A DNA stretch of 64,000 bases from Arenicellales bacterium (GTDB lineage: Bacteria; Pseudomonadota; Gammaproteobacteria; Arenicellales; Poriferihabitantaceae). The notes beneath the pieces were generated by a model. That model saw nothing but the letters and a program-made list of their open reading frames with translations. It did no database searches and was not told the origin of the DNA. The translations under genes and the position numbers were made by a program. Location: the NCBI GenBank assembly GCA_965231905.1, contig CBDDOO010000001.1:324900-388899 (forward strand), written 5' to 3'. This document shows, one piece after another, positions 1 to 63,795 of the stretch (the first letter of the stretch is position 1; each line of letters opens with the position of its first letter).

Positions 1-963
1 TGAGGCCATGCTCCCTTCAAAAACAAAATCCTCCGGGAATGTTTGCAGGCAAGCAGCCTCTCGAATACTGATTGCCCTGTCCTGCTCCGGGTGGCCAAAG
101 CGTCCATTCGAGTAACTCGTGCACCGAGTGGTTAGTCCCGATGCGGGAGTGTCCCAGGACATCCGGCCATAAACATCGGTATATCCAGAGAAATTCCTGT
201 GGCACTCAAGTCTGAGATGATCTGGCCAATCCCGGTTACCCCCGCCTTCCGGCGTTGCCTTGACACGTTCGACATTCCGCGCAGAGAGATTCGCCGCCCT
301 ATGGTTGGGTATCTGGTCGTGTTCTTCCCCCGCTTGTATTGGTGGAAGATGAGAGATCCAGTCACGCACAGTACCATATCGTTCGTTCGGCGTTCCCGGC
401 CCATGAGTCTCATCGGGCAGATGGATTGTACCGTGCCGGCTCGCTACCAATACGAGCCGACGGCGACTTTGTGGTATTCCGTACCTCGCCAGTTTGATGG
501 GGCGATAGTCCACTTCGTATTCTGCCGCTTCCAATCGACCCAGAAAATCACCGAAAGGTTGACTATCGCTATCCAGTTTCTGCAGCCCCGGAACATTTTC
601 CACGAACACGAGATCTGGTCGGCAACCCTCTACCAGATTTGCAAAGTAGGTAAGTAACGGCACACGTTCGTCCTGATCCAGGTTCGGTCGCTTGGTATTT
701 TGTCTGGAAAATGGCTGACATGGCGCACACCCACTGAAAAGCACTGGTTGTAATCGTTCCGATTCTACCCGAAGCCGTACGGCTTCAACGCTTACGTTAC
801 GAATATCTGCAAACTCGAAGTGTGTGTCGGAGAAGTTGGCCTGGAAGCTCGCTCTGGCTTCTGCATCGTGATCCAGCGCGAACGAAATCTCCATACCGGC
901 ATCCTGAAAGCCACAACTGGCGCCGCCACAGCCGGCGAAGAAGTCATATACCTGAACGGTCAT
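1..963 (-). CDS. DNA (cytosine-5)-methyltransferase, partial (3' end runs off window)
   Basis: Absent from the ORF track because there is no stop in the window. My reverse-strand translation from ATG at 963 gives MTVQVYDFFAGCGGASCGF (motif I), GCAPCQPFS (motif IV catalytic PCQ), FVENVPG (motif VI) and PQSRRRLVLV (motif VIII). Confidence 0.85.
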   Translation of the reverse strand, partial: MTVQVYDFFAGCGGASCGFQDAGMEISFALDHDAEARASFQANFSDTHFEFADIRNVSVEAVRLRVESERLQPVLFSGCAPCQPFSRQNTKRPNLDQDERVPLLTYFANLVEGCRPDLVFVENVPGLQKLDSDSQPFGDFLGRLEAAEYEVDYRPIKLARYGIPQSRRRLVLVASRHGTIHLPDETHGPGTPNERYGTVRDWISHLPPIQAGEEHDQIPNHRAANLSARNVERVKATPEGGGNRDWPDHLRLECHRNFSGYTDVYGRMSWDTPASGLTTRCTSYSNGRFGHPEQDRAISIREAACLQTFPEDFVFEGSMAS

Positions 964-990
964 TGGTTCATCATGGCAGGTCATCTCCCT

Positions 991-1425
991 TCATTCGTAA
1001 AGCAAGGTATATAACTCGAAAGCCTTGATCTGTTTTCTCACTCCCTCGAACGTGTCGCGTCCAGTGACTCTTGAAATCGGTTGCGTGGGTTCGCGCTGCT
1101 TGAAAATAACGTATTGCATCATTCTTCTACCCAGAAATTGTAACCCCAAATGAGTTTTTTGGTCGTCCTTCCAGACGGCGCGCAGATTTCCATTATCCAT
1201 CGATACCAAGTTACCTTTCCGCAAGCGCGGATCCAGTTCGATGAAACTCTGGAAGTCAGCCTCGGAGGTGAGGTTCAATGCATAACCGTCATTTGCCGCA
1301 ATATGGCGTAGATCAGAAATTCTCACTGAATACGCCTGAAATTTAGTCCGCACCGGCTCATTCAAAGCGAATGCGGCGCTGGAATGATCGAAGGTGAAGA
1401 ATTTTGCAGCATTTCGAGTATCCAC
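991..1425 (-). CDS. hypothetical protein (144 aa), directly upstream of and co-oriented with the C5 methyltransferase
   Basis: Intact ORF ending 27 nt before the methyltransferase ATG. No motif recognised. Confidence 0.5.
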   Translation of the reverse strand: MDTRNAAKFFTFDHSSAAFALNEPVRTKFQAYSVRISDLRHIAANDGYALNLTSEADFQSFIELDPRLRKGNLVSMDNGNLRAVWKDDQKTHLGLQFLGRRMMQYVIFKQREPTQPISRVTGRDTFEGVRKQIKAFELYTLLYE

Positions 1426-1601
1426 AATTTACGTTGAACGCGATTGATTGTCATGTTCAGGAATTGGGTGACAATTACTTCATGCGCCCGCATCATACCA
1501 CGTATCTGTGTCCGACTTCGCTACGACCAATTCCGATACGCTTCATGTCAACACAGCAATTCCCGCCAGCTACAGATGATGAGGGCTATCAAGGGATTTG
1601 A

Positions 1602-3216
1602 GGGAGTTTAAAGAAAGTTTATCGTAAACTTTTGTCCTGAAGGGATGTATTCTACGGTTCCAATTTCAAGAAACAGAGGAGAGGTCATGAACCATCCAGT
1701 CAGTCGCAAGGATTTATCCGCTCACGGGTTATACCAGGTTGTTCGCACGTCTTTTGAGTCATTTCCCGATTCCAGGCAGGTTCGCAAGCTGTCTTTGCCG
1801 GATGTTCTGATGTCCGGTCTGGCGATGTTCAGTCTGAAGTATCCTTCCTTGTTGCAGTTTGACCGTTGTCGTCATGCACAGGCGGTTCGTCATAACTTGC
1901 GGACTTTGTTCGGGATTCGACAGGCGCCGTGCGACACGTATATGCGGGAGCGTTTGGATGAAGTGGAGCCGCATGCGTTTGAGCCGGTTTACAAGCGGTT
2001 GTTTGCGCGGTTGCAGAGGGGCAAGGGACTGGAAGGTTTTGCGGGGCCGGGCGGTCATTATGTGTTGTCGGTAGACGGGACCGGGGTCTTTTCTTCCCGG
2101 CAGGTTCGCTGTCGCTGCTGTTGTGAGAAACGCCACCGGAACGGCGAGGTTACGTATTACCATCAGTTATTGGCTGCGGTATTGGTGCACCCGGATTGTC
2201 GGGAAGTGATTCCGTTGATGCCCGAGGCCATTGGAAAGCGGGACGGTGCGACGAAGAATGACTGTGAACGGGCTGCATCGAAGCGGTTGCTGAGACGGGT
2301 TCGTCGCAATCATCCACACTTGAGGCTGCTGGTGGTGGAAGATGCTTTGGCCGCGAACGGGCCGCATATCCGGCTGCTGGAGTCGCTGGACATGCGCTTT
2401 ATGCTCGGAGTGAAGCCGGGGTCTCATGCGGAGTTATTCCGTTGGGTGGAGGCCACGACAACCACGGGCGCCCTCGAAGTGTCGGGAGAGGACGGTGTCC
2501 GTTTCCGTTTCCGGTTTCTCCATGCAGTCCCGTTAAATGACGCGCACTTTGATCTGGAAGTGAACTTCCTGTCCTGTCAGGAGATTCGCCCCGATGGCCG
2601 GGAACGACGCTTCTGTTGGGTTACGGACCTGCCGATTGACGAATCCAACGTCTATGAACTGATGCGGGTCGGTCGCGCCCGTTGGCGCATCGAGAACGAA
2701 ACCTTCAATACGCTGAAGAACCAGGGCTACGGCCTGGAACACAACTTTGGTCACGGCAATCAATACCTGTCTACTGTACTGACGCATTTGATGATGCTGG
2801 CCTTTCTGATTGACCAGATACAACTGCGTTGCTGTGCGGTGTTCAACCGGGCGCTGATGAGCCGCCACAGTCGCAGCGCCTTGTGGCGGAAGATGCGAGC
2901 CCTGTTTGATGAGTATCTGATCAGCAGTTGGGAAAGCCTGTTTCATGGAATCGCTTTCGGATACTCTCCCCCGTCCCTCCCCGACCCCCCTTGAGCTCTT
3001 CCGTGACCCGGTGTGTTCCGGGGGGATTTTCAGCGTACACAAAGCCCGTCCTTTTTGTTGCGGCAACCCGGCAGCCCGGCTCTGCTCGCCCTGAAGAAAC
3101 AGCCCGCAGAAAAATCCAACTCTCAACCGTCATCCCTCTATCCATTATTCCCTGGCGGGAATTGCTGATGTCAACACTATCTTAGTGACCACATTGTTAA
3201 GTTCCGATAAACTCCC
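1602..3216 (+). mobile_element. IS element (IS4-superfamily DDE transposase); boundaries approximate
   Basis: Single transposase ORF. Candidate imperfect terminal inverted repeats: GGGAGTTTA...AGTTTATCGTAAACTT (1602-1630) versus the reverse complement of GTTCCGATAAACTCCC (3201-3216). No clear target-site duplication found. Confidence 0.5.
1687..2994 (+). CDS. DDE transposase, IS4 superfamily
   Basis: C-terminal GRARWRIENETFNTLKNQGY matches the IS4-type Y-R-E-K signature. GGAGAGG RBS lies before the ATG at 1687; the ORF track start at 1645 is also possible. Confidence 0.85.
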   Translation: MNHPVSRKDLSAHGLYQVVRTSFESFPDSRQVRKLSLPDVLMSGLAMFSLKYPSLLQFDRCRHAQAVRHNLRTLFGIRQAPCDTYMRERLDEVEPHAFEPVYKRLFARLQRGKGLEGFAGPGGHYVLSVDGTGVFSSRQVRCRCCCEKRHRNGEVTYYHQLLAAVLVHPDCREVIPLMPEAIGKRDGATKNDCERAASKRLLRRVRRNHPHLRLLVVEDALAANGPHIRLLESLDMRFMLGVKPGSHAELFRWVEATTTTGALEVSGEDGVRFRFRFLHAVPLNDAHFDLEVNFLSCQEIRPDGRERRFCWVTDLPIDESNVYELMRVGRARWRIENETFNTLKNQGYGLEHNFGHGNQYLSTVLTHLMMLAFLIDQIQLRCCAVFNRALMSRHSRSALWRKMRALFDEYLISSWESLFHGIAFGYSPPSLPDPP

Positions 3217-3236: not shown

Positions 3237-5111
3237 ATGTCAGAAAATCACAATCAAGGTTCCCAAGAAGGCGGAGGAGATCAGGACATGGCAATAGTGA
3301 CTCAAGAGGATTTTGTGTCTGCGGACCTCGAAGCGCCTATTCGTGGTAGCAACAAGGTTGATTGCTGGAACTTGGCGGCCCTGTACGAAACAGCAGCCAG
3401 AGAACACAAACAAGCTGGCAACGAAACCGCCGCCCGCGTCTATTGTCTTATCGCTGATGTCTCCCACATGCACTTCAACCCCGAAGACCGGGCGGAACCC
3501 TATGGTCCTAATTTTGTTTTGGGCGGAAGGCGAAGTATGATCCCCTGCGACTTGCGAGGAGGTCAATCGGACGTATTCGCAGCTATTGCGTCTAATATTG
3601 ATAATCCAGGACTCAGGGCACGGCTTTCCGATGTGGCTTGGCACAACAATCGTGGGCTTTTTGCCATGGCACAATTGGCGATCAACGCCTATTGCGATAC
3701 TGTGCAAGCGGTTCTCGACGGCACAGCCGAATTTTTTTCCGACGAGCGAACCGCCAGTAGCCGAAGTGGTACTGAGATGCTGCACCGCGCTTGTCAAATC
3801 GCCCATGCAACAGGCTGGAAGAAATCTGAAAAAATACGCCTCAAGTCATTAATCACCACCGTTGTCCAGGATGCATTCAATCGAAAAGATCACCGTGGAT
3901 TCCTGAATACAGCCGAACTCAGCCTGCAACTCCGCATCGGCGAATCGGACGCTATAGCTCGAAACGCCGAGACGCTGATTACAACCAACAGCCCGGATGC
4001 TTTTATTTCCCGTGAACTATGGCAACTCGCCGCTCTTGCCTACCGACAGTCGGGAAACGATACTGAGCTCAACCGCTGCCTTATATCCGCAGCGGAATGT
4101 CTCGTTGCACTGGCAGATGCTGAAGGCGGGCGCGGAATGGTCGCAGCAGGTCACTTGAGTGATGCCATCAAAGAACTTAGGCGAATACCAGATACTCAGA
4201 AAAGGCGACAACAACTTGAGCGCAAGCTCCGCGACGCGCAAGCCTCAATACATGACGAAATGGGCGTGATATCGGCGCCGGTTGACCGGACTGATCTTGT
4301 CAAAGAAACCCGTAAAAGTGTGAGTGGCTTGAGTCTGGCACAGGCACTAGCGGTTTTTGCTGATCTCGCTTCGCCCCCGGCCCCGGCAACGTTACGAGAC
4401 GAAGCGAGGAAGCAGTACGAGAAAAGTCCTTTCTTGAGTCTTATTCCGAAGTCGATAGTCGATGACGAAGGCAAGGTAGTGTCCAGGTCTCCCGCTCTCA
4501 CTGGCAACGAAGCAGAAGACCAATCAGCAATCCACCATAGCATTGCCAAAGATGAAGGCTTTCGCAGGCATATTGTCGTTCGCGGGCAGATTGAACCGGC
4601 AAGGCAGTTGATCCATTTCGAACACACGCTCGGACAGCGTGATTTCCTCCCTCTCGTGACTATGAGCCCGTTCGTTCCTGAAGATCGTGTGGTTCTTTTC
4701 AGTTTGGCGTTTATGCGATTTTTCGGCGGAGATTTTATGTCCGCACTTCACATTCTCGTTCCGCAGTTGGAGAATTCATTGCGTCATATCCTGAAACAGA
4801 CTGGCAAGGAACCCTCCTCAATCCAGAGTGACATGACGCAGGAAAACCGGAGTTTGTCGGTACTGCTCACGAAGGATCGAGAGTCACTCGAAAAAGTATT
4901 CGGCTCCGCTATTATCTATGAGATTGAGAACCTGTTTGATTTTCGAGGCGGCCCCGCACTCAGGCATCAACTGGCGCACGGGTTGGTCTCAGGAGAGGCT
5001 TGCTACGGGACAGATGCGATTTATGCGTGCTGGTTCATTTTTCGGCTGTGTTGTCTGCCTTTATTTAGTCATTGGGAACAACTGACCAAGTGGATGGACG
5101 GAAACTATTAG
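3237..5111 (+). CDS. alpha-helical protein with C-terminal HEPN-like (Rx4H) / DUF4209-like domain
   Basis: 624-aa ORF with GGAG 9 nt upstream of the ATG. C-terminus LFDFRGGPALRHQLAHGLV contains R576-x4-H581 (nt 4962-4979), as in HEPN/Abi_2-type RNxxAH motifs. A second LENSLRHILK helix lies upstream. Confidence 0.75.
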   Translation: MSENHNQGSQEGGGDQDMAIVTQEDFVSADLEAPIRGSNKVDCWNLAALYETAAREHKQAGNETAARVYCLIADVSHMHFNPEDRAEPYGPNFVLGGRRSMIPCDLRGGQSDVFAAIASNIDNPGLRARLSDVAWHNNRGLFAMAQLAINAYCDTVQAVLDGTAEFFSDERTASSRSGTEMLHRACQIAHATGWKKSEKIRLKSLITTVVQDAFNRKDHRGFLNTAELSLQLRIGESDAIARNAETLITTNSPDAFISRELWQLAALAYRQSGNDTELNRCLISAAECLVALADAEGGRGMVAAGHLSDAIKELRRIPDTQKRRQQLERKLRDAQASIHDEMGVISAPVDRTDLVKETRKSVSGLSLAQALAVFADLASPPAPATLRDEARKQYEKSPFLSLIPKSIVDDEGKVVSRSPALTGNEAEDQSAIHHSIAKDEGFRRHIVVRGQIEPARQLIHFEHTLGQRDFLPLVTMSPFVPEDRVVLFSLAFMRFFGGDFMSALHILVPQLENSLRHILKQTGKEPSSIQSDMTQENRSLSVLLTKDRESLEKVFGSAIIYEIENLFDFRGGPALRHQLAHGLVSGEACYGTDAIYACWFIFRLCCLPLFSHWEQLTKWMDGNY

Positions 5112-5218
5112 ACTCGCCCAGTTTCTCGACATGAGAAAACACTCGGACTCAGTGAGGCGGATACCCTCCCTGCCCACCACAAAGCGAAATCGTGTATCAT
5201 CCCTGCCGGAGTCCAGAT

Positions 5219-7366
5219 ATGTATACGATAAATGACATCAATCCGGTCGAAATAAAACAGCCATTTCGACCACGGGCGAGGGTGCTACAACTTCTCGGTG
5301 ACGAATTGATAGGCAGCGCCCGATTGGCGGTCTTTGAACTGGTCAAAAATGCGTATGATGCGGACGCAAATGAAGCTGTCGTTCGCCTTGATCTTGCCTC
5401 GACACAAGAGCCAATGATCATTATTAACGACGATGGCGAGGGCATGACTCTCGATGTACTCCGATCAGTCTGGCTGGCGCCGGGGGACGATCATCGTCAG
5501 AAACAACGCCTATCGGGCCGGAGAACCGCCAAGCATCAGCGTCTTCCACTTGGAGAGAAGGGGTTAGGCAGATTCGCTGTCCACAAACTCGGGAATCACA
5601 TCACCCTCGTGACGCGTGCTCAGAATGCTGACGAATGTGTGGTGGAAATTGACTGGAACGAGCTGATCGACAAACCCTATCTGGATGAAGCGCCCGTGAC
5701 GATACGGGTTCGTTACCCAGAAGTGTTTACCGGAGAACAGACGGGAACCCGTATCGAAATCCGTCAATTACGAATAGCCGACTGGTCGCGTGGTGAAGTA
5801 CGGCGCTTGCACAACCAGATCACCTCCATTTGCTCTCCGTTCGAGGAACCAGGGGATTTCGATGCCAGGTTGCTCGTCCCCGGACGCGAGGACTGGATTG
5901 ATGACCTGCCAGATATTTCCGAAATTCTTGATCGAGCGATCTGGAAGTTTTCCTTTCGAGTTTCGGATGGCGACTTCAACTGGACTTACGAATTCCGCCA
6001 GATTCCCGGTTTCAATCTCGACGGCAGAACCGTCAATAAGTCTGGCGACCGGCTGAGGCTTCCGTCACGCTCGGGTGACGACCGGATGGAAAAGAAAGTT
6101 GTGGCCGATAAAGAGATATTTGAAGGTATCGGTCCTGTCACCGGAGAATTTTATGTTTACGACCGGGGTCAGGAAGTGCGTCGGAGAATGTCCCAGATAC
6201 GACTGCTGGAGTCTTACCTTGATGAAACGGGAGGAGTACGAGTCTACCGGGATGGCATTAGAGTGTATAACTATGGTGAGTCTGGAGACGATTGGCTTGG
6301 CCTTGATCTGCGTCGTGTGAATGTGCCGACACGCCGTATCAGCCGCAATATCATTTTAGGAGCGATACATCTGTCCCTGCGAGAATCCACTGGTCTTGTC
6401 GAGAAAACGAATCGGGAAGGTTTCGTAGAAAACGCGCCCTGCCTCCAGTTGCGCCGAATCGTCCTCGGCGCCCTTGCTGCCCTTGAGGCGGAACGGCAAT
6501 TTGATAAAGAGCGTATCAGACAATTGACCGAAAAACCGGACGATCCAGTGAGCGCTAAAATCGAAAAACCGATACAGGCGCTGCGCCGCGAGCTTGAACG
6601 ACAGGGGGTGGAAGAAAAGTTCGAGAACTTTGTTGTAAAGATCGAACAGGACTACCAGAGCATGCAAGCGACACTGCTCACAGCCGGCATGTCCGGTTTG
6701 AATCTGGCAGTAGTATTTCATGAGGTAGAACGGGGTGTGCGGGCACTCCACCAAGTCATTTCCGAAGGTGCGGACATGGAGAGCGCTATTCTCCAAGCGC
6801 GTGATCTCATGCGCCTTCTCGACGGGTTCGCCACATTGCTCCGGCGAGACAGCAAACAGCAACACAATGGGAGGAAATTGCTGGATGCCGCTCGAAAGTT
6901 CAATATATTGCGCTTCCGACATCATCGCATCCAACTCGTATGTCCGTCTCTGAAAAGCGCTGACGAACTGTTCTACTCCCGGTTTGCATTCGGTTTGGTT
7001 GTGGGAGCATTGAACAATCTTGTGGATAACGCTCTATACTGGCTCCGGGTAAAATGGCCGGATATTCCAGAGCCAAACGATTCTACCGAACGAAAGCTTT
7101 ACATCGGCGTATCGGACGATTTCGATGCTGGACCGGCCATCATCGTCGCGGACAACGGTACGGGTTTTCAGGGAGACGCGCCTGAAAACCTCGTGCGGCC
7201 ATTCTTCACTCGCAAGCCCGAAGGGATGGGGCTTGGTCTTTATTACGCAAATCTGGCGATGGAATTGAATGGAGGACAGCTTGCTTTTCCACAGCCGGGA
7301 GAGGTCGAACTTCCCGAAGAATTCGACGGCGCAGTCGTCGCCCTGATATTCAAGGAGGTGAAATGA
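5219..7366 (+). CDS. dual GHKL ATPase: N-terminal MORC/HATPase_c_3-like module plus C-terminal histidine-kinase-like DHp/CA module
   Basis: N-terminal motifs: ELVKNAYDADA (N box), INDDGEGM (G1), GEKGLGRFAVHKLG (G2). Centre: VVFHEVERG (His codon 6719-6721, H-box-like). C-terminal motifs: NLVDNALYW, VADNGTGF, GMGLGLYYA. ATG at 5219 follows GGAG; GTG at 5192 is an alternative start. Confidence 0.85.
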   Translation: MYTINDINPVEIKQPFRPRARVLQLLGDELIGSARLAVFELVKNAYDADANEAVVRLDLASTQEPMIIINDDGEGMTLDVLRSVWLAPGDDHRQKQRLSGRRTAKHQRLPLGEKGLGRFAVHKLGNHITLVTRAQNADECVVEIDWNELIDKPYLDEAPVTIRVRYPEVFTGEQTGTRIEIRQLRIADWSRGEVRRLHNQITSICSPFEEPGDFDARLLVPGREDWIDDLPDISEILDRAIWKFSFRVSDGDFNWTYEFRQIPGFNLDGRTVNKSGDRLRLPSRSGDDRMEKKVVADKEIFEGIGPVTGEFYVYDRGQEVRRRMSQIRLLESYLDETGGVRVYRDGIRVYNYGESGDDWLGLDLRRVNVPTRRISRNIILGAIHLSLRESTGLVEKTNREGFVENAPCLQLRRIVLGALAALEAERQFDKERIRQLTEKPDDPVSAKIEKPIQALRRELERQGVEEKFENFVVKIEQDYQSMQATLLTAGMSGLNLAVVFHEVERGVRALHQVISEGADMESAILQARDLMRLLDGFATLLRRDSKQQHNGRKLLDAARKFNILRFRHHRIQLVCPSLKSADELFYSRFAFGLVVGALNNLVDNALYWLRVKWPDIPEPNDSTERKLYIGVSDDFDAGPAIIVADNGTGFQGDAPENLVRPFFTRKPEGMGLGLYYANLAMELNGGQLAFPQPGEVELPEEFDGAVVALIFKEVK

Positions 7367-8658
7367 GGCTGCCAGCACCGCGTATTATCGCGATTGACGA
7401 CGAACCGAAACACCTCAAAGGATTGGCGCAGGGACTCAACCGATATGGCACGGCCTGTCTGCCCATTCACTTCACAGGTGAAGCCACTATTCCTTCATGT
7501 TCTCATGTACGTGTAATCTTCGCCGACCTTCACCTCAGTGGCGGCCTTAAAGACCATGCACAAGACTTCAGCATAATCGGCGGCCTGATTGAAGATATCC
7601 AACCATCCGGTCCTTATTTCATCGTCCTCTGGACCATGTATCCAGAGCAAGCGTCTGCATTGTATGCTTTCCTTGTGGATCGTCTCCAGAGTGTGGCTAA
7701 ACCGTTCACGGTGCAAGCACTCAACAAGAACGATCATCTTGACACACAGGGTGATGTAAAAAACCCTGAGGCGCTTGTCGAAGCTATAGGACGGGTCGTT
7801 GTAGAACAGCCACAGATCGGGGCGCTATTCAATTGGGAGGAGCGGGTACTGGGCGCTACCGCGGATACAGTATCATCCATTACCAAGATGGCTGATTCGG
7901 CTGCAAAAGACGCAAGCCCCGTTAAAGAAATCGACAGGTTGCTCAAGAATATTGCCATTGCCGCTGTCGGTAAAGATCATGTCGAAGAAGATCGGTTTCA
8001 AGCTGTCAATGAAGCGCTTCTACCCATCCTCGCTGACCGCATTGCATCCATGCGTTCACGGGAGATTGACCGTGAATTATGGAAAGCCGCGTTTGGCGGA
8101 TCAAAGACCAGTTCCAAGTTGAGATCTGATGAAGCTGCCAAGCTTAACCGTCTGCTTCACATTGCACATCCGACAGACATAAGTAGCTGGATGGAACGTG
8201 GCTCTGTCATTACTTTGCCAAAGAGAGCCTCAGGCGACAAGTTCAAGCCATGGTTCGGTCTTGAACAAGAGATGGCGGCCAACAAATCCTTCGGTTGTCA
8301 GGATTTCGACTCAAACGATGCTCGATTCCGTTGGGTACTCGTACAATCGCAAGCGGCTTGTGACTACGCTCAAATACGGCCGGGGCCATTGACTTTCTAT
8401 CTCGGGCTGTGCTTGCCCGAACCAAGAGCTCGTAAAGGGAGCCTCCCTTCCGCCCTTTGGGCCAGCCCATGTTTCTACTTTGATGACGAGCCCTTCCTGC
8501 TGCATGTGAACGCAGGCTTTCAAATGCCGTTGCCACGAACGTCGCGAGGAATAGAAAAGCCTCTTTTTCGTCTGCGCGAACAGCTTCTCAACGATATGAT
8601 TTATCGACTCCATAGCCACGGCGCCCGGCCTGGGGTTATTTCATTTCGCAAATCTTAG
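7363..8658 (+). CDS. response-regulator receiver (REC) domain protein with ~300-aa C-terminal domain of unknown function
   Basis: REC landmarks: RIIAIDDEP, VIFADLHLSG (Asp 7525-7527), FIVLWT, VAKPF (Lys 7698-7700). ATGA overlap with the upstream gene, and AAGGAGG RBS at 7352-7358. Confidence 0.8.
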   Translation: MRLPAPRIIAIDDEPKHLKGLAQGLNRYGTACLPIHFTGEATIPSCSHVRVIFADLHLSGGLKDHAQDFSIIGGLIEDIQPSGPYFIVLWTMYPEQASALYAFLVDRLQSVAKPFTVQALNKNDHLDTQGDVKNPEALVEAIGRVVVEQPQIGALFNWEERVLGATADTVSSITKMADSAAKDASPVKEIDRLLKNIAIAAVGKDHVEEDRFQAVNEALLPILADRIASMRSREIDRELWKAAFGGSKTSSKLRSDEAAKLNRLLHIAHPTDISSWMERGSVITLPKRASGDKFKPWFGLEQEMAANKSFGCQDFDSNDARFRWVLVQSQAACDYAQIRPGPLTFYLGLCLPEPRARKGSLPSALWASPCFYFDDEPFLLHVNAGFQMPLPRTSRGIEKPLFRLREQLLNDMIYRLHSHGARPGVISFRKS

Positions 8659-8669
8659 GCAAGTGATTC

Positions 8670-9623
8670 TTAAGGAGAATCAATCAGGGATTTCACCACA
8701 GCCGTCATCACCGGCGGGCAGACCCCGTTACCGAGTAGCCGGACGCGGTCGCGTCGAGTACCGATCAGCAACTTGAAACTCTCATCGAAACCCATGGCTC
8801 GCTTGAGCTCGGGAACTTGGAGCATCCGCATCCTTGATTCCCTCCCATCATGCTGGACAAGAGCGAAACGATCCACAGTTGTAATGGTGCGTAAAGGCCG
8901 ATCAAGGGGTTGCCAGCCGCCACTTCCATCATTCCCATAGTACACCAGAAGAAAACTGGCTTCCTCTCCGAGTGCCTGAAAGCCGCGTTGCGCCCGTTCA
9001 AGCGTCGCAGTGGCCCGACGCTCATCGAACAAGGCAGATGTTTTCCAGACACCTACTGAATCCAGTATTGACTTTACCGTTTTACGCTGACAGGGGCGCT
9101 TGTGGATAACCGGGTTCGGATTACGCGCGCGGTCGCCGACGAGAAAGAGACGGCGCCGACGTTGCGGCACACCGAAATCGGCTGAATCCAACACGTGTTC
9201 ATGCAACCGATAACCGAGATTGCCAAGTTCATGCTTGAGTTCTCCATAGCGCGACCATGGTCGCATGTGGATCACATTTTCCAACACCAGCCACCGGGGA
9301 CGCAGTGCTTGAGCATAGCTGACAACCAACATGGCAGTGGCACGGCTGGCTTCGTCACGCGGCGCCCCGCCCTTGGCACAGGTATGGTTAGTGCATTCGG
9401 GAGAAGCAAGCAGAAGATCAATCTCGCCGATTTCCGTTTTCAAGGAACCGAGGGGAACGCTTTCCAAACGTTCGGCGATGACCCGCGCCTCTGGAAAATT
9501 GGTAGAAAACGTCTTGGCTGCGATGGCGCACATATCAACACCGACAACGATTTCGGCTCCGGCATCTCGCGCTCCGGCGCTACCGCCGCCTGCACCGCAG
9601 AACATGTCAAATGCCCGTATCAT
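8670..9623 (-). CDS. DNA (cytosine-5)-methyltransferase
   Basis: AFDMFCGAGGGS (motif I), ASPECTNHTCAKGG (motif IV variant with PEC), LENV (motif VI), PQRRRRLFLVG (motif VIII). Lies 37 nt downstream of hsdS on the same strand. Confidence 0.9.
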   Translation of the reverse strand: MIRAFDMFCGAGGGSAGARDAGAEIVVGVDMCAIAAKTFSTNFPEARVIAERLESVPLGSLKTEIGEIDLLLASPECTNHTCAKGGAPRDEASRATAMLVVSYAQALRPRWLVLENVIHMRPWSRYGELKHELGNLGYRLHEHVLDSADFGVPQRRRRLFLVGDRARNPNPVIHKRPCQRKTVKSILDSVGVWKTSALFDERRATATLERAQRGFQALGEEASFLLVYYGNDGSGGWQPLDRPLRTITTVDRFALVQHDGRESRMRMLQVPELKRAMGFDESFKLLIGTRRDRVRLLGNGVCPPVMTAVVKSLIDSP

Positions 9624-9660
9624 CTTGTGGTGATGATTGTTTTGCTGTTTATGATGTCAG

Positions 9661-10818
9661 TCATGCGTCTGCTTCCAGAAGGCGTGACATCAGGGAAGCG
9701 GTCAACGACGCGGAGGTTTTATGACCGGAGTCAGCGAGTTTGGTTGTTGTCTGTGCAGATTGTATGATTTCTGCAAATCGCTTTTGTGCATCAAAAGTCG
9801 GTACTGGAACCGGCATCGACAAGAGTGCTTTCATGTCGGTTCTGGGCATCCGTGAGCCTGTTACCGAGGCCATAACATAGTCAACGGTTTCTTCTCGCCG
9901 GAGCAAGTTTGCAAGAAAGTCACGATTTACCCCGTCTCGAGGTAGCAATGGGATAAGCTCGGTCGAACACCTGCCAGGGAAATCGGGCGTGGCAACTTTA
10001 TTAAGGTATGGCCTGAGCTTTCCATAAAGAACATGGCGTTCGTCAAAAGAGAATGCCGCGCTCTTTCGGGCGCCGACACGAGAATCTGAATCGAAGTTAA
10101 AGGCTCCGATACCTGAGTCAACGTTTTCGACCCCGACGAAACGGAGTTGGGGTGCGATCGGATCGTTTGGTTTGATCCCGCGACGGTCCATATCGCAAAG
10201 GTCACCAAGCGTTTTTATCTCCCACCCCATCGGATTCTCGACCGGGTCTCCGAACATTTTGACGAACAGCGCCGGAATGAATTCCTGCAACCGTTCCTGT
10301 GCCTGTTTTTGCAGCCGTTCAATCTTCGCCGCCCGGTTCAGGATATTGACGATGCGGCGTTGCTCGTCGAGTGGTGGGAGAGGAATACAGACCTGCTTAA
10401 GAGTGGACTTTGGGAGTTCTCTAAACGTCGTACCTCCGGCGAGTTGAATCAGGCGTTCACGCTGGTCGCGAAGCCAAAATGCGAGATACTCCGGCACAAT
10501 GCGTTCGCTACAAATGAGGTTGGCGAAACCCTGGTTGGTCGCTATGGGCTGAGTCGCGATTGCCGTGTAGCCAATGGTGGCTCTACTCGTCATCAATACG
10601 GTTCCAGCAGGCACTAAACGGGCACTGCTTTCACGCAACGCAACTTCAGTGATTGATTCCTTTGTTTGATCGAGAAAGAGAGTATCAAGCACTGTCACAT
10701 CCGTCGGTGTGGCCCACGGTATGGTGCCATTGAAATAAGCAGCAATACTACGCCGGGGAGTTCCCCCGCCAACGATGGTACAAACTTCTGCGAGAGGCAC
10801 TCGTACGCACGCAGTCAT
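9661..10818 (-). CDS. hsdS: type I restriction-modification specificity subunit
   Basis: Two-TRD layout with conserved helical spacers (PLPPLDEQRRIVNILN ... VPVPTFDAQKRFAEII). ATGA overlap with hsdM. Confidence 0.9.
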   Translation of the reverse strand: MTACVRVPLAEVCTIVGGGTPRRSIAAYFNGTIPWATPTDVTVLDTLFLDQTKESITEVALRESSARLVPAGTVLMTSRATIGYTAIATQPIATNQGFANLICSERIVPEYLAFWLRDQRERLIQLAGGTTFRELPKSTLKQVCIPLPPLDEQRRIVNILNRAAKIERLQKQAQERLQEFIPALFVKMFGDPVENPMGWEIKTLGDLCDMDRRGIKPNDPIAPQLRFVGVENVDSGIGAFNFDSDSRVGARKSAAFSFDERHVLYGKLRPYLNKVATPDFPGRCSTELIPLLPRDGVNRDFLANLLRREETVDYVMASVTGSRMPRTDMKALLSMPVPVPTFDAQKRFAEIIQSAQTTTKLADSGHKTSASLTASLMSRLLEADA

Positions 10819-12446
10819 TCCGCCACCACCCCTCGCACCGCCCCCGCCAACTCATCAATCTCTCCCAATATCTCCGTCTCAATTTCCCTCAATTCCTCCA
10901 GAATCTCCAACGGGTCGCGATGCTTCACTTTAGCCCGGCTTTGTGGCCGGTGCCGGTTGGCGCTGAGATTGAAGTCCACAGCGCGAATTTCATCAGCCTC
11001 GGCGAACCACCACTTCTCCGTCCAGTTGTCCTTCAGATCCCGGTCGCGCCACGCCGCCCACCGCTCCTCCCGGTCCTGGAACGCATCAATCAGACCGGGC
11101 AGGTCATCCTCGTCAATCGGCGTATCATGGTTGGCGTCCAGCTTGAATCCGTCCTGGTCGGCATGGAGAAACATCACCCGTTCTGTTGTCCCACCCTTGC
11201 GAAATACCAGCACGGAAGTCTTGACCCCGGAATAGGGATTGAACACGCCACCGGGCAACGACAGTACGGCCTCCACCGTATTGTTCTCGATCAGTTTGCG
11301 CCGCAATTCCTGGTGCGCTCCAGTAGACCCGAACAATACACCCTCCGGCACGACCACACCGCAACGTCCTCCTTCCCGCAAATGGTTGACCATGTATTGC
11401 AGGAACAGAAGTTCCGTCTGCGCTGTGCGTCCGACCTTCACATCCTCGACAATGCGATCCTTGTCCAGGCGCCCGGAAAAGGGCGGGTTGGCGAGGATGA
11501 CATCAAATCCCTGCACTGGCAGACCCAGTTCCGCCTTTGCGGCCCGGTCCAGGGAACGGGTCAGTGCATCGCGGCGCAAGATGCGTACCCGGTCCAGACC
11601 GCGCAGGGTCAGATTCATCGTGGCGAGGCGCACCATCTGCGGGTCTACATCGTTGCCGAAGAACGTGGCTTCCTGCAACTGCCGCACCGCGTTCCGGCTC
11701 AACGTGTCGCCGAGTCCGCGTACAACTGTCTTGCCCTCGGCTTCCACCTCTTCCATTCCGTCAGGCGACGAGTTCGCCAGCCGGATATGATCGTAGGCGC
11801 CGACCAGAAAGCCAGACGTGCCTGCCGCCGGGTCGTAAACAGTCTCGCCGATGCGGGGGTCAACCAGCCGAACCAGGGCGCGGATAATGTGGCGTGGGGT
11901 TCGGAACTGACCCAACTCCCCCGCCTGACGGATCTGGCGTAATACATGCTCGAACAGATCGCCCTTGGTATCCGCGTCCACCTGGTCCAGATGCAGGTCG
12001 TTCAGTTGGCTGACGATCTGGGTGAGTACGGTCGGCTCATCAATCACCAGCCGGGCGCCGTCCATGAAATCGGTAACGCCGTCTGCCGCGACTTCGGCAT
12101 GGAACGCAAAGACCTCCTCGCGAACCCAGTGGACCAGTCGCTCGCCGTTCAGCGCATGCGCCCAGGACGACCATCTCAACAATTCGCGTGATACGGACTC
12201 GGCGCCTGACTCTGGAGCATTGCGCGGGTCGCGCAAGTCCCATTCTCCTTCGAAGACGCTGGCATAGGGAGCGGCTCCCGGACGCCGGGCAGCCCGCACA
12301 CGTACCGCGTCCGCCGCCTCGTACAGGTAGAAGTAGATCAGGAAGCTGAGTTGCTCGGCGTTCTGGGCCGGATTCGGGTAACCGCCGCCGAACAGGTAAT
12401 TGCGGATACGGTCGATGCCGCGCCGAAGTTCCGGGGTCATGGGCAT
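10815..12446 (-). CDS. hsdM: type I restriction-modification N6-adenine DNA methyltransferase subunit
   Basis: FRTPRHI, DPAAGTSGFL (SAM motif), ILANPPFSG (NPPF catalytic motif). Start moved to ATG 12446, 4 nt after the hsdR stop, rather than the track start 12530, which would overlap hsdR by 80 nt. Confidence 0.9.
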   Translation of the reverse strand: MPMTPELRRGIDRIRNYLFGGGYPNPAQNAEQLSFLIYFYLYEAADAVRVRAARRPGAAPYASVFEGEWDLRDPRNAPESGAESVSRELLRWSSWAHALNGERLVHWVREEVFAFHAEVAADGVTDFMDGARLVIDEPTVLTQIVSQLNDLHLDQVDADTKGDLFEHVLRQIRQAGELGQFRTPRHIIRALVRLVDPRIGETVYDPAAGTSGFLVGAYDHIRLANSSPDGMEEVEAEGKTVVRGLGDTLSRNAVRQLQEATFFGNDVDPQMVRLATMNLTLRGLDRVRILRRDALTRSLDRAAKAELGLPVQGFDVILANPPFSGRLDKDRIVEDVKVGRTAQTELLFLQYMVNHLREGGRCGVVVPEGVLFGSTGAHQELRRKLIENNTVEAVLSLPGGVFNPYSGVKTSVLVFRKGGTTERVMFLHADQDGFKLDANHDTPIDEDDLPGLIDAFQDREERWAAWRDRDLKDNWTEKWWFAEADEIRAVDFNLSANRHRPQSRAKVKHRDPLEILEELREIETEILGEIDELAGAVRGVVAE

Positions 12447-12450
12447 ACCG

Positions 12451-14601
12451 TCAACGCTCCCCGATGTGAGAGTCCCTGGATTCGCCTGTTGTCGGACGCG
12501 GTCCGAACACCACGGCATTGAATCCGGCAATCAGCCTGTCGAGGAATTTCTCGCCTCCGAACACCCGCCGGGCCTGATCATATCCGCCCAGGGCGGTGAA
12601 CGGGTGTTCATCCAGGTTGTAATCTCCGAAGGTTTCCGCTTTCATGGCGTTCGCCTTGACCTGACTCCCGATCAGTCCCGCCCAGCGAGCCTGTTCGGCG
12701 GTGAGTTCCTGCTCACTGCGCCATTGCTCAACCCGCAAGCCGATTCCGGCTGCTCGCGCATCGTGTTCCGGCGTGCGCACAATCCGGCCGTTCTCATCGA
12801 GCGTCAGCCACTCGCGGGTTGAGGGGTCAATGTGGTCGTCCACATCCAGCGTCAATAGCTTGCCGGATTGGTATGGCCCCTGTCGTCCGTCCCGTTTGTT
12901 GGCATCCAGGACTCCGCCTTCCATGCCTTCATCATCGTCTCCGTGGAAATCGGTCACACCGGCGAAATCGAACAGGGTGAATCCTGTCTTCCCGATATGA
13001 TCCGCCCTGCGAGTGCCGCGTCCGCGCATCTGTCGGTAGAGGATGGCGCTGCGGGTGAACCGGGCCATCACCAGATTGACCACCTCGGGACAGTCGAAGC
13101 CGGTATCGAGCATATTTACACTGACCAGAATCCGGGGAAATTCTTCTTCCTTGAAGCGCTTGATGATGGCGCCTGCATCGGGGGCCGGGCCGCCGCCTGC
13201 GTCACTCACCACGAAATCCGCGTATCGCGTCGTCGGGTGCGGTTTCAGGTCGGCGAAATGCTCATCGAACATCTCCGCCAGCGTTTGCGCATGGCGTTTC
13301 GTCACCGCGAATACGATGGTTTTGCCCATGTCCGGGATATGCCGGATACCGCTCTTGCCCATGAACCCTTTTTCGAAGGTGTCGCGGAACTCGCGGACGA
13401 TGGCGCGGTTGCGTTCGGGTATCGTGAATCTGCGTTCCAGGGCGCGAGGGTCTACGCTGATGCTGTCCATAGTCACGAACAATTTCTCGAACTCGGACCG
13501 GGTGGTCACATCCATCGCGCTCCAGTCCAGTTCATCGCGCCGAACTGAAAATCCGTCTACATCGGCTGTCTTTACCGTCATCGCCTTGTAGATGCGATAG
13601 GGAACCAGGTGGCCCGCCTGAATGGCTTCGGGTAATGTGTAGCGGAAAGTCGGCTTTTCAAGGCCGAAGAACCGCAGAGTGTCCCGCACGAACAGGCCGT
13701 CTTCCGGGTCGGAAGGCGCGTCCCCATCCATTACGGTGCAAGGGGTCGCCGTCAGTCCCAGTTGGAACCCATCAAAATGCCGTAATACGCCACTCCATTT
13801 GCCATAGATTGAGCGGTGGCATTCATCGGTAATCACCAGATCGAAATAACCCGGTGAAAGGTCGCGATATTCCGCGATCATGGTCTGAAGGGTCGCAATC
13901 GTGACCCGCTTGGCCCGGTCGAATCCCCGGCCGGGGCGCAATACGTGACAGGGATAATCCCGCAGGTGGTCGGTAAATGCGTCTTCGGCTTGACCGGCCA
14001 GCGCAATTCGGTCAACAAGGAACAGGACACGGGTGACCATACCCGCCTCGAACAAGCGTTTAATGAAAGCGGCCGCTGTGCGGGTCTTGCCGGTTCCCGT
14101 CGCCATCTCGACCAGCAGTTTGCGCCGCCCCCGCAATACTTCGGTAGATAGCTCTTCGATACAGGCGATCTGGTAATCCCGGTCCACGATGCTCCGGTCA
14201 ATGGCGACACTGGAAAGGTCGCGGCGAATCCGGCGCGCGGCAATCCGCCTTTCCAGATCATCCTGTGAATAGAAACCCGCGATTATCCGGGCATGCGCGT
14301 CTGTTTCGCGATCCAGGAAGCGTACTTCCTCGCCGTTCGACAGGAATACGAACGGCACATCCAGTTGTCCGGCGTAGTGGCGCCCCTGGTCCTGAGCCGT
14401 GACCGGATCAATGCTGGCGCGCTTGGCTTCGAGTATCGCCATCGGGCGGCCCTGACGGTCACAGAGCGCATAGTCCGCCTGCGTACCATCGGGAAGGGCG
14501 TGCTCGAACAGGACGCTCGACCCATCGGTGATATTCCAGCCTGAATCTTTCAGCAATGCGTCAATCTTGACGCGGGAAAACGCTTCAGTGGTTGAGGTCA
14601 C
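12451..14601 (-). CDS. hsdR: type I restriction enzyme R subunit (PD-(D/E)xK nuclease + SF2 helicase)
   Basis: N-terminal ADYALCDRQGRPMAILEAKR (D...EAK nuclease motif), MATGTGKT (Walker A), ITDECHRS (DEAH-type motif II). GTG start. At 716 aa it is short for HsdR. Confidence 0.85.
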   Translation of the reverse strand: MTSTTEAFSRVKIDALLKDSGWNITDGSSVLFEHALPDGTQADYALCDRQGRPMAILEAKRASIDPVTAQDQGRHYAGQLDVPFVFLSNGEEVRFLDRETDAHARIIAGFYSQDDLERRIAARRIRRDLSSVAIDRSIVDRDYQIACIEELSTEVLRGRRKLLVEMATGTGKTRTAAAFIKRLFEAGMVTRVLFLVDRIALAGQAEDAFTDHLRDYPCHVLRPGRGFDRAKRVTIATLQTMIAEYRDLSPGYFDLVITDECHRSIYGKWSGVLRHFDGFQLGLTATPCTVMDGDAPSDPEDGLFVRDTLRFFGLEKPTFRYTLPEAIQAGHLVPYRIYKAMTVKTADVDGFSVRRDELDWSAMDVTTRSEFEKLFVTMDSISVDPRALERRFTIPERNRAIVREFRDTFEKGFMGKSGIRHIPDMGKTIVFAVTKRHAQTLAEMFDEHFADLKPHPTTRYADFVVSDAGGGPAPDAGAIIKRFKEEEFPRILVSVNMLDTGFDCPEVVNLVMARFTRSAILYRQMRGRGTRRADHIGKTGFTLFDFAGVTDFHGDDDEGMEGGVLDANKRDGRQGPYQSGKLLTLDVDDHIDPSTREWLTLDENGRIVRTPEHDARAAGIGLRVEQWRSEQELTAEQARWAGLIGSQVKANAMKAETFGDYNLDEHPFTALGGYDQARRVFGGEKFLDRLIAGFNAVVFGPRPTTGESRDSHIGER

Positions 14602-37043: not shown

Positions 37044-40000
37044 TTACAGGGAGCTCAAACCACCTTGGTAGGCAGCTTCCAGCCGTTTCCTGCCTTTTTC
37101 ACCAATACGGCGCATGCCGAGCCATTTGCGCATTTCCACAACTACATCCTCCTGGTTACAGCCACAATCAATAAAGTAGCGGGACATGGCCACGAGTTCA
37201 GACATGGCAACATCTTCTGCAGCACGCTGATGTGAAAATCCATCAACCACACGAAAGCTGTCCCAGTTGGGTGCATCAGCGTTCACCAGCCACACGAATC
37301 GTGTGTCATCTTCCGTGGTAATTTGCAGCCTGTCATTGCTTTTCAGAACTTCACCAAGTACCCGGTTGATCCTGCTGCCTGCACTTTTGAAGCCATGGGC
37401 CTTGGTAATCAATTTGAACAGGACTTCCTCACGAATTGGCTGCTCATGCTGAACGATTTGCTCCATCAGACGAGCGTGTGTAGTGCGGTAGTGAAACTCG
37501 TAAAAACTGTCCTGCTTAAGGTGCAAGTCACTAGAACCTTCACTCCAAGGGATGTACTCACACTTACCCGGTATCTCAGGGGCATCCTCTACCACCTCAC
37601 CAGCAACCTTTTCCCACACCATCTCCTGGGGATCAGCCTTCAAAGAGAGATCATGGTCATCCTCATCCGTACCTGCAAGATTTGTATCAACATCCCCTTC
37701 TGCATTCCTTATCCACTGCTTCGCATCTGTCGCGTTTGCTGCGCCCTCCGAAGGCACTTCATTGTCCTCATCGAAAGACTCCAGCAACTCACGTAACTGC
37801 TGGTCCACATGATTGACACAATCCTCCGGGGCAACCCACCAGTCTGTGGACCAGATTCTCAGAATCTTCCACCCCAGTCCCTCCAGAACTTGCTGGCGCA
37901 GGAAATCCCGGTCACGTGCCGTGGCAGAACGGTGATAAGTCGCACCGTCACATTCGATACCGGCAAGATACATCCCGGCCTTGTCAGGATGAACAACACC
38001 AAGATCAATGCGAAAATCGGACACACCGATCTGGCTGTGAACCATCCAGCCCCGCTCCTCCAGCCGAATCGCAACCTGCTCTTCGAAGGGTGAGTCAAAA
38101 GTTCCCAACGGACGTTCGATCGACTCTCCGATTGCTTTCGCGCCCCGTTTGGCAAAATCCATGAAGTGCTTCATGTCTCTCACACCGGCTGCTGCTGTAC
38201 GGGACAAATCGATATCTTCCGGCTGCATGCTGGAGTAGACATGCATTTCATTGCGTGCACGGGTGATTGCAACGTTCAGTCGCCTTGGCCCGCCGTCCTG
38301 ATTCAAAGGCCCGAAATTCATCGACAAGCGGCCCGAATGGTCCTTTCCGTAGGTCATGGAAAAGTAGATGATCGAGCGTTCGTCCCCTTGCACACTCTCT
38401 ATGTTTTTCACGAAGATGGCCTCAATGTTATCTTCTGCAAAGAAAGGTTCGATCTCGGGGTAATCCCTGCGTGCCTTCTCCAGCAGGTCTTCAATGAGAA
38501 CCTGTTGTTCCTGATTGAAGGTAACCACTCCGATGGTCATGCCCGTTTTTTTGAATTCCGGATCACGCAGCCTGGATACTATGCTGTCGACCACGGCTCT
38601 TGCTTCGGGTTGATTGATCCGGTTGCCGCCTTTCTCATACAGTCCGTCACGAACATGGTGGAACGATACCGCGGTGTCGGTCGTAGCCGGCGACGGAAAA
38701 GTGATTAGCCCACCCCTGTAGTAGTTGTGATTGCTGAAGGTGATGAGAGACTCTTGTCGTGAGCGGTAATGCCACTTCAGTTGATAGGTAGGCAGATTAG
38801 CGCCCATGCATTCATCGAGGATGGATTCCAGGTCTCCAACATCAATATCGCTGTCGTTGTCCTCATCCTCCTGGCGGTTGAAAAATGAGGTCGGCGGCAG
38901 CTGCTTCGGATCACCTACAACAATGGCCTGATTCGCCCTTGCAATAGCCCCAATGGCATCCCATGGCGTGATCTGACTGGCCTCATCAAAGATCACTACA
39001 TCGAAGAACGTCCCCTCAGGGGGCAGGTACTGGGCCACCGACATGGGACTCATCATCACACAGGGAGTGAGCTTGAACAGATTGCTGCCAAGCTTTTCCA
39101 CCAACTGACGCACCGGTATATGACGGCGCTTTTTTTGAATTTCCCGACTGAGCACATGCCACGTCGAGCCTTGCGGAATATGACCACGCGAGGGGATTAC
39201 CTGGCTGAGTTTGGCAAACACGTAGGCTTGGGTAAGTTCCATGAAGTGCTCGTCCAGCTTCACGAAATCCTCAATCGTGCGCACATGCTCGGCGGGCACG
39301 AATTTTCGGATTACATCATCATTGTCCACGGCATGATTCAACCACCAGCGGTGATAGTTCACCCTGAAGGCTTCCTCGGCCGTGTTGCCTGCAAGGGCGC
39401 CTTTTTCAACGGCTTCCACTAATGACTGCATGCCTTTTGCCAAGGCATCGTTTCGAACCCACCGCCAGGCGGTCCAGGCCTTCAGCCTAGGAGCCTGTTC
39501 CAGCCACTGTGCACAAGTATCTATGGTCGTTTGCAAAAACGACTTCTCGTCAGACTTTACATGCAAGTCACCGGTCACGGCAATGGTCGTACCCAGGGAC
39601 AGTTGAGCTGCCTCAAAGGCCTCTAGTGACTGCACGAATGTGTTCGCCGATGTCTGGATCTTACCGCTCGGGCCCAACAGGTCTGTAGACTGAAGCAGCA
39701 TGATCATCGTGGATGTGGCCTCGCGATAGGCCTCTGGTGATGCGAATAGTGCACCCATCACACTTCTTAGCTCATGGCCAAACTCCGCAGCGTGTGTGAA
39801 AAGTGCAGGATCCGTGTGAATACCCTCGAACTTCCTGCCGATGACCTGATCCAAGCCCTTGAGCATCTCAAATGCCGTCCTCGTTTTTTTGGCATTTGAG
39901 AGATGGGCAAGATCGGAGGTGACACCAGAGATTTTCGAGCCCCCAGAAAATGGCTTGAGCCGGGCTTTTACGGCCTTGACACCCAGCCATTTCGCCAGGA

Positions 40001-63718: not shown

Positions 63719-63795
63719 CGGGGTGTAGCTCAGCCTGGTAGAGTACTGCCTTCGGGAGGCAGGGGCCGGTGGTTCGAATCCACTCACCCCGACCA
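63719..63795 (+). tRNA. tRNA-Pro (anticodon CGG)
   Basis: Cloverleaf folded by eye: acceptor CGGGGTG/CACCCCG, D-arm AGCTCAGCCTGGTAGAGT, anticodon stem CTGCC/GGCAG with loop TTCGGGA, T-loop GGTTCGAATCC, encoded CCA. Confidence 0.9.

Follow-up and report, generated by a model that had tools for sequence, protein, structure and literature searches.

Three co-oriented genes at 3237-8658 of a 64,000-nucleotide stretch of DNA from an Arenicellales bacterium (contig CBDDOO010000001.1; the whole stretch is hereafter called the window) raise the question of which of them belong together and what they might do. The original prediction, made from the DNA letters alone, read them as one undescribed three-gene defence system with Detocs-like logic built from different parts, in which gene 1 encodes a HEPN-type protein, gene 2 a histidine-kinase-like protein with two GHKL ATPase domains and gene 3 a receiver-domain protein. 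Our comparison of these genes with their relatives leans, by a modest balance of probability, towards two independent units: a stand-alone gene 1, and a mobile, methylation-linked two-component module made of genes 2 and 3 and the adjacent C5 cytosine DNA methyltransferase gene (dcm), whose output would be a phosphorelay-gated toxin. The open reading frames (ORFs) agree with the predicted arrangement, lying in the same orientation at 3237-5111, 5192/5219-7366 and 7363-8658. Genes 2 and 3 share the expected ATGA overlap at 7363-7366, with the ribosome-binding site AAGGAGG directly before it, and are translationally coupled.

We surveyed contigs from one genome per species with the window proteins and compared 45 loci that carry relatives of gene 3 at 39-99% identity. 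These loci span about a dozen phyla, with Gammaproteobacteria, Binatia, Spirochaetia, Acidobacteriota, Gemmatimonadota, Dehalococcoidia, Nitrospinota, Dadabacteria, Rhodothermales and Opitutales among the taxa represented. A gene 2 homologue lies directly upstream of gene 3 in 44 of the 45 loci, the exception being a truncated remnant (L048), and the two gene calls overlap by 4 nucleotides in all four loci whose gene calls were read. A C5 methylase stands beside the pair in 40 loci and a Vsr gene in 33, the window being among the 12 without Vsr, and an orthologous type I restriction-modification (R-M) operon is present in six. The expected co-occurrence of the trio across genomes thus holds for genes 2 and 3 and fails for gene 1, which has a homologue within 10 kb of the pair in a single locus (L005) and is absent from the other 44. 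Five loci have no methylase: one ends at a contig edge too near to tell (L016), one carries a disrupted copy (L049), and three are from Spirochaetia (L032, L033 and L040).

The window dcm gene (8670-9623, minus strand; Pfam DNA_methylase, E 3e-36) is convergent with gene 3 and lies 11 nucleotides from the gene 3 stop codon. Thirty-three of the 40 survey methylases are orthologous to it and likewise convergent, 10-96 nucleotides from the gene 3 match except in three interrupted loci, and the remaining seven fall into five further sequence classes (six in all), some of them co-directional with the pair. Because non-orthologous methylases recur in either orientation and across phyla, the association points to a functional partner, beyond shared descent. 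The adjacent C5 methylase, which had been taken for a mere flank, is the partner conserved beside genes 2 and 3, and the unit can be defined more sharply: it consists of a kinase-like ATPase, a receiver protein and a C5 methylase, and Vsr is an optional member. More distant homologues (about 31% identical for gene 3 and about 50% for gene 2) occur on conjugative plasmids of Rhizobium, Agrobacterium and Burkholderia. The Burkholderia glumae cassette consists of the ATPase, a gene 3-like gene, vsr and dcm with no other nuclease, and that of R. gallicum of the ATPase, a gene 3-like gene, a small ORF, dcm, vsr and an EcoRII-type enzyme.

Classical sequence-matched restriction was considered as an explanation of this linkage and rejected, since swaps between methylase classes do not follow gene 2/3 divergence. 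The best PADLOC model for dcm is DrmMII, the DISARM class 2 methylase, which it matches over its full length (E 1.3e-92); DISARM membership was rejected in turn, as no DISARM-like component was found among the neighbouring genes scanned. The best PDB sequence matches of dcm are DNMT2 and DNMT1, with no bacterial M.HhaI-type enzyme at E <= 1e-10. Gene 2 is 59-86% identical across the other species despite their very different phyla, a pattern that suggests recent horizontal spread of the module within a shared habitat; several of the carrier taxa are typical marine-sponge symbionts. A phage collection yielded one 5.4-kb unannotated fragment only, which argues that the module is not typically phage-borne. 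The carriers of L005-L049 are nearly all uncultured metagenome-assembled genomes (Binatia, Entotheonella, Dadabacteria, Palauibacter, Bryobacterales, Spirochaetia and others), and homologues in cultured hosts offer experimental access to the module.

Several relatives record gains and losses around the pair. The L005 locus is 99% identical to the window in gene 3, 93% in gene 2 and 90% in dcm, and in this and another close relative a Vsr gene sits between dcm and hsdS (L005 13147-13557; L055 4064-4546). The equivalent interval of the window (9623-9661) is a gap of only 37 nucleotides with no Vsr, leaving the C5 methylase without its usual mismatch-repair partner. Vsr was probably lost in the window, given that the relatives usually keep it. 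The same two relatives carry an extra ORF of 239-250 residues between gene 3 and dcm (L005 11310-12062, plus strand; L055 2344-3063, plus strand) that is absent from the window and most other loci; in L055 its product matches HNH_5 weakly (E 0.002), and the ORF could encode an optional nuclease partner. A third relative, L056, has suffered a single 3-kb deletion at 12789-12791, equivalent to window 6025-9030, which removes the kinase part of gene 2 (about half to two-thirds of the gene), the whole of gene 3 and the C-terminal third of dcm, and leaves gene 1 and the type I operon intact beside it. Such joint loss of the pair and dcm is as expected of a toxin and its self-mark. In L054, an 89%-identical gene 1 homologue stands beside a different version of the module (5729-8495, minus strand) comprising a PF19192 Response_reg_2 protein (E 1e-25), a 360-residue C5 methylase and a 176-residue GHKL gene that looks internally deleted, the start of HATPase_c_3 being fused to the end of HATPase_c. 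In two survey loci, an AspBHI-like methylcytosine-dependent type IV gene (RE_AspBHI_N and Mrr_cat domains) directly follows gene 3 (L016 11316-12266, minus strand; L045 11316-12482, minus strand), placed in L045 between gene 3 and the methylase.

Gene 1 (3237-5111, plus strand) encodes a 624-residue protein with Pfam matches to DUF7380 (E 7e-51) and DUF4209 (E 6e-5, residues 511-603). It starts at an ATG with GGAG 8 nucleotides before it, and one database gene call begins at Met18 (nucleotide 3288). Both PADLOC profiles of the candidate PDC-S39 match it end to end (E 4.8e-129 and 3.4e-118), with residues 20-612 aligned to positions 7-603 of 615 in the best match, and the predicted Rx4H HEPN-type motif (R576/H581) is invariant in an alignment of 17 homologues, as in an ordinary member of the family. 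DUF4209 has been placed in the HEPN superfamily (C6orf70 family) and "occurs in R-M related operons" (Anantharaman et al. 2013, PMC3710099). A literature search on PDC-S39 or DUF7380 found no functional study. The expectation that no named system would be matched in PADLOC was therefore right for genes 2 and 3 and wrong for gene 1: at E <= 0.1, the three proteins returned only PDC-S39 for gene 1 and a weak REase_II match for gene 2.

The placement of gene 1 bears directly on whether the three genes form one defence system in which the pair controls a HEPN ribonuclease (RNase) effector, as originally proposed. In favour of this, the genes follow one another in one orientation both in the window and in L056, all five related genomes examined keep gene 1 within the island, where it repeatedly accompanies a type I system, and HEPN proteins of its family have been reported near R-M operons (PMC3710099). 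Against this stand its absence from 44 of the 45 gene 2/3 loci and its shifting position, which is upstream of gene 2 in the window and beyond the type I operon in L005 (78% identity) and, with the same layout, in L055. The nucleotide homology blocks shared with L005 break between the genes, that of gene 1 ending at 5134 and that of gene 2 beginning at 5167. In L056, where gene 1 precedes gene 2 as in the window, gene 1 has outlived the deletion that destroyed gene 2, gene 3 and dcm. Homologues at 54-55% identity (L057, L058) stand alone, one within a defence island of a genome that has its gene 2/3 pair 1.8 Mb away and the other amid glycine-cleavage and tRNA-synthetase genes; the genomic position of a further homologue (P0395) was not found. 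Scanning metagenomes with gene 1 alone brought up no relatives, a single-protein pattern being overly strict. This independent placement in other genomes argues that gene 1 is a single-gene unit, as PADLOC treats it, and we regard control of the HEPN protein by the pair as highly improbable. Gene 1 probably encodes a stand-alone, HEPN-type predicted RNase that shares an island with the module formed by genes 2 and 3 and the methylase.

Gene 2 (plus strand) opens with a GTG at 5192 in the mechanical ORF, and most likely starts at the ATG at 5219, which has GGAG 7 nucleotides before it and fits the homologues, giving a gene of 5219-7366. Pfam places HATPase_c_3 at residues 45-159 and HATPase_c at residues 606-701 (GTG numbering), and the protein reads as a MutL/MORC-like GHKL ATPase at the N-terminus, followed by a central region, a DHp-like H-box and, at the C-terminus, a CA domain of the kinase type. 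We aligned 49 homologues, including distant proteins from Enterobacter mori and Acinetobacter baumannii. The H-box histidine that the original prediction singled out (H501 in ATG numbering, nucleotides 6719-6721) is invariant across the alignment together with the following E502 (the two spanning nucleotides 6719-6724) within the motif FHEVERG. Equally invariant are the Bergerat motifs of the N-terminal ATPase (E40, N44 and D47; D71xGxG; G112xKGxGR) and the N, G1 and G2 boxes of the kinase domain. The predicted MORC-like module likewise finds support in the N-terminus: residues 30-196 match positions 8-170 of NCBIfam NF050001 (BbrUII/HgiDII) at E 1.8e-22, a match confined to the first ~170 of 659 positions, whose 79.7 bits fall far short of the cut-off of 550. 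Many histidine kinases in NCBIfam match the C-terminus, as do the FixL, ZraS and LvrB kinase cores in the PDB, and tblastn finds full-length homology to proteins labelled "sensor histidine kinase" in E. mori (E 4e-42) and A. baumannii (E 2e-25). Reading the translation by eye, we found no hydrophobic run long enough for a membrane helix. Taken together, the Pfam, NCBIfam and PDB matches and the alignment describe a probably soluble, paraMORC-type histidine-kinase-like protein.

The MutL-like head invites a reading in which gene 2 works with Vsr and Dcm as an accessory of very-short-patch repair, acting on T:G mismatches that arise from 5-methylcytosine deamination, with the phosphorelay tuning repair. 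Such a role would be in keeping with the stimulation of Vsr by MutL in E. coli, with weak NCBIfam matches between the gene 2 N-terminus and MutL, and with the presence of Vsr in 33 of the 45 loci. Yet 12 loci, the window included, have no Vsr, and Pfam finds neither a MutL C-terminal nor a DNA_mis_repair domain in gene 2. The pair resides in mobile defence islands and on conjugative plasmids, and a repair function would leave its co-deletion with dcm in L056 unexplained. A role in repair is, on this evidence, quite improbable.

Gene 3 (7363-8658, plus strand) returns no match in Pfam, NCBIfam or PADLOC even at E <= 10, and a PDB sequence search gives a marginal receiver match only (3rqi, E 0.04). 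An AlphaFold2 model built from 27 homologues (mean predicted local distance difference test score, pLDDT, 80.6) contains a (beta-alpha)5-like receiver fold, and Foldseek aligns the model with receiver domains including FixJ, HupR and CheY4, in agreement with the anticipated REC fold. Three parts can be delimited: the receiver fold (residues 7-148), a helical middle (residues 150-266) and a beta-rich C-terminal domain (residues ~275-420). The residues D12, D13, D55 (nucleotides 7525-7527), T91 and K122 are invariant and lie at the ends of strands 1, 3, 4 and 5. This arrangement upholds the proposed aspartate pair, phospho-acceptor aspartate and threonine and displaces the proposed receiver lysine: K113 of the supposed KP motif (K113-P114) is not conserved, and the receiver lysine is K122, at the end of strand 5. 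Genes 2 and 3 thus look like a cytoplasmic histidine-kinase-like/receiver pair in which all phosphorelay residues are conserved.

A pair of this kind might simply serve ordinary environmental two-component signalling, its neighbourhood being coincidental. The intact kinase and receiver motifs would suit such a role, and the distant homologues do carry the label "sensor histidine kinase" from the Prokaryotic Genome Annotation Pipeline (PGAP). Gene 2, however, has no transmembrane or classical sensor domain and bears a head of the restriction-enzyme/MORC type, and the pair has no DNA-binding output. In 40 of the 45 loci, from many phyla, the pair is linked to a methylase, non-orthologous ones included, which is far more than chance would give. 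The probability of plain environmental signalling is next to negligible.

For the output of the pair, we modelled residues 262-431 of gene 3 separately and obtained a confident model (pLDDT 83.9; predicted template modelling score, pTM, 0.82). Its best PDB match in Foldseek is CcdB (4elz_C, E 0.14, template modelling score, TM, 0.50), and its best in BFVD is PemK/MazF (E 0.028, prob 0.97, TM 0.54), both marginal. Four further PemK-like or endoribonuclease matches stand among the top 27 in BFVD, and for the full-length gene 3 model the domain again matches a toxin best, MazF-mt1 (6kyt_D, E 0.049, also marginal). Weak but consistent, these matches provide a lead, new here, that the gene 3 C-terminal domain may adopt a MazF/CcdB toxin fold. 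The domain resembles these toxins in its predicted beta-rich core followed by a C-terminal helix, and differs from MazF/PemK and CcdB in having no sequence similarity to them and no antitoxin gene, and in being fused behind a receiver and a helical domain. Pfam and Foldseek detected no nuclease domain in gene 2 or gene 3, and, as the original prediction stated, there is no PNP effector: Pfam finds none and PADLOC finds no Detocs component.

These features can be assembled into a model for the genes 2/3 and dcm module. The methylase would mark host DNA. The soluble MutL/MORC-like ATPase head of gene 2 would monitor DNA, either its methylation state or the presence of foreign DNA, and gene 2 would autophosphorylate on His501 through its kinase-type ATP-binding domain. 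Transfer of the phosphate to Asp55 of gene 3 could then turn the MazF/CcdB-like domain, as the toxic or restricting effector, on or off. In this way the module might behave as R-M or addiction units do, with a phosphorelay-gated toxin for its "R" arm in place of a classical endonuclease. We offer more tentatively the specific sequence in which the MORC/MutL-like ATPase reads methylation or foreign DNA independently of the specificity of the methylase, and His-Asp phosphotransfer then releases a MazF/CcdB-fold toxin; this chain of events is possible, though on balance doubtful. If true, the model would make this the first phosphorelay to serve as the "R" arm of a methylation-based self/non-self system, and would bring MORC-type ATPases, DNA methylation and two-component signalling together within bacterial immunity. 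The tentative effector assignment is the first for such proteins and makes the earlier idea of an R-M regulator into a testable toxin-switch model.

A number of observations weigh against the two-unit, toxin-gating reading. The toxin-fold match is marginal (Foldseek E 0.03-0.14, TM ~0.5), and neither an alignment of the C-terminal profile to E. coli CcdB and MazF by hhalign nor an hmmsearch of PDB sequences with that profile supports it. MazF-like catalytic residues picked out by eye, R279 and S/T329, were rejected because the sole computed local alignment shifts the strands. The L010 locus is 77% identical in gene 2 and 63% in gene 3, and yet its methylase is 565 residues long and 28% identical to that of the window; similarity of genes 2 and 3 that does not track methylase class makes it unlikely that the sensor recognises the same specific DNA sequence as the methylase does. 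The Spirochaetia loci L032, L033 and L040 have the pair with no recognisable methylase nearby. Some loci hold conventional nucleases that are possibly the real effectors: EcoRII-C in Rhizobium, the HNH-like ORF in L005 and L055, and the AspBHI-like genes in L016 and L045. All five genomes examined in the window lineage have gene 1 in the island, two of them directly upstream of gene 2, and a lineage-specific functional link of gene 1 to the pair is still conceivable. A literature search for experimental work on the kinase-like/receiver architecture found no functional study.

The conventional nucleases also bear on a regulatory reading, in which genes 2 and 3 encode cytoplasmic signalling partners that control the expression or activity of the neighbouring R-M or Dcm-Vsr genes, for example by timing the methylase against the nuclease after transfer, with gene 3 a regulator and no toxin. 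Nucleases in several loci would supply regulated targets, R-M genes of several types accompany the pair, independently of methylase class, and regulation has been proposed for such pairs in the literature (PMC8011034). What this reading does not accommodate is that gene 3 has no recognisable DNA-binding output domain and a C-terminal domain predicted to resemble a toxin fold, and that many cassettes consist of the pair and dcm, sometimes with vsr, and hold nothing else to regulate. We judge a purely regulatory role unlikely, while giving it some weight, and prefer the phosphorelay-gated toxin.

The pair has a published precedent, and the description of the locus as undescribed does not stand. 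A computational study of 644 regions in 628 strains (Bellieny-Rabelo, Pretorius & Moleleki 2021, PMC8011034) reported kinase-like proteins with HATPase_c_3, HEF_HK (PF19191) and HATPase_c domains, 91.6% of them with a linked protein whose N-terminal domain is receiver-like (Response_reg_2, PF19192), in regions that showed a significant excess of R-M domains, C5 methylases above all, and of Vsr. Its authors proposed a paraMORC origin and speculated that the proteins regulate R-M systems. Gene 2 shares with these proteins the order HATPase_c_3, H-box with a His-acidic pair and HATPase_c in a soluble protein; gene 3 shares the downstream position, the N-terminal receiver-like domain and an unannotated C-terminus; and the neighbourhood is similarly rich in C5 methylase, Vsr and type I/II R-M genes. 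The Pfam families themselves do not extend to the window. PF19191 has no match in gene 2 at E <= 10 and none in the Rhizobium and Burkholderia homologues at E <= 0.01, with a weak, sub-threshold match (E 0.0023) in the A. baumannii gene 2 homologue as control. PF19192 has no match in gene 3 or in 14 family members tested, whereas as a control it matches a different protein in L054 at the E 1e-25 given above. A hidden Markov model of 333 gene 3 family sequences does not reach PF19192-type proteins, and hhalign of the gene 3 profile against the receiver-like proteins of E. mori, A. baumannii and L054 is not significant. The likenesses are anecdotal echoes only (a "CD" strand, an "AR.G" C-terminal tail and a "WE" helix), and tblastn of the L054 PF19192 protein against plasmids gave two matches, too few for a profile. 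We interpret the window pair as a probable uncatalogued sister branch of the HEF_HK/Response_reg_2 kind, neither a new system nor a relative of Detocs. The receiver-protein branch is large, with 1590 clusters at 50% identity (E <= 1e-3) in many phyla and on conjugative plasmids, and is invisible to Pfam, NCBIfam and PADLOC.

Comparison with Detocs places the analogy of the original prediction more exactly. In both, as far as the genes predict, a cytoplasmic histidine kinase hands phosphate to a receiver that carries a toxic effector domain, and the setting is one of defence. The window pair differs in having no PADLOC match to DtcA, DtcB or DtcC, no buffer receiver and no PNP domain, in the MORC/MutL-type ATPase that forms the sensor head of gene 2, and in the tie of the module to a C5 methylase. 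"Detocs-like logic, different parts" is accordingly a fair description of genes 2 and 3, and its application to gene 1 falls away. The N-terminal GHKL head of gene 2 is shared with BbrUII/HgiDII enzymes (NF050001) and with paraMORC ATPases (Iyer, Abhiman & Aravind 2008, PMC2292703), and all three are associated with C5 methylases and R-M islands. Unlike BbrUII/HgiDII, gene 2 has a kinase module in place of the enzyme's C-terminal part and appears to delegate its output to a separate receiver protein. Set against classical type II R-M systems, the methylase is present, and the gene 2 head matches restriction enzymes in its N-terminal part, far below cut-off.

The wider setting of the cassette is partly as first described. 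The G+C content is ~0.51-0.53 over 3-10 kb, which includes the cassette, and ~0.58-0.63 from 11 kb on, matching the claim of a less GC-rich insert. The cassette was said to sit between two C5 methylases and a type I R-M operon. The operon is present (9661-14601, minus strand; Pfam, and the PADLOC models Specificity_I, MTase_I and REase_I), with hsdS at 9661-10818, hsdM at 10815-12530 and hsdR at 12451-14601. One of the methylases, dcm, is intact, and the other is a degraded remnant at ~436-957 (minus strand), where the ORFs survive only as fragments and tblastn finds 25% identity to dcm residues 2-165 (E 1e-11). The insertion sequence reported beside the cassette is there too, as a DDE transposase gene at 1645-2994 (plus strand; Pfam DDE_Tnp_1, E 1.4e-4, slightly short of the curated cut-off). 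It is an insertion relative to L056, where the equivalent of window 981-1521 is joined to that of 3197 onwards with no transposase (L056 9203-9961), the former lying ~230 nucleotides upstream of the gene 1 block. Pfam identifies GST and ROK genes beyond the type I operon.

Further defence-type genes occur in the window at a distance from the cassette. A 1985-residue protein encoded at 37044-43001 (minus strand) combines DUF4011, an AAA_11/AAA_12 helicase, a REase_MTES_1575 nuclease and DUF3320, and is a large helicase-nuclease of a defence-like type. An ATPase with AAA_14 and DUF4143 domains is encoded at 43548-44798 (minus strand), and a 744-residue protein with a GmrSD_N domain, type IV restriction-like, at 59887-62121 (minus strand). 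The sole RNA gene in the window is a tRNA-Pro (CGG) at 63719-63795 (plus strand), as judged by ARAGORN and by Rfam at the gathering threshold.

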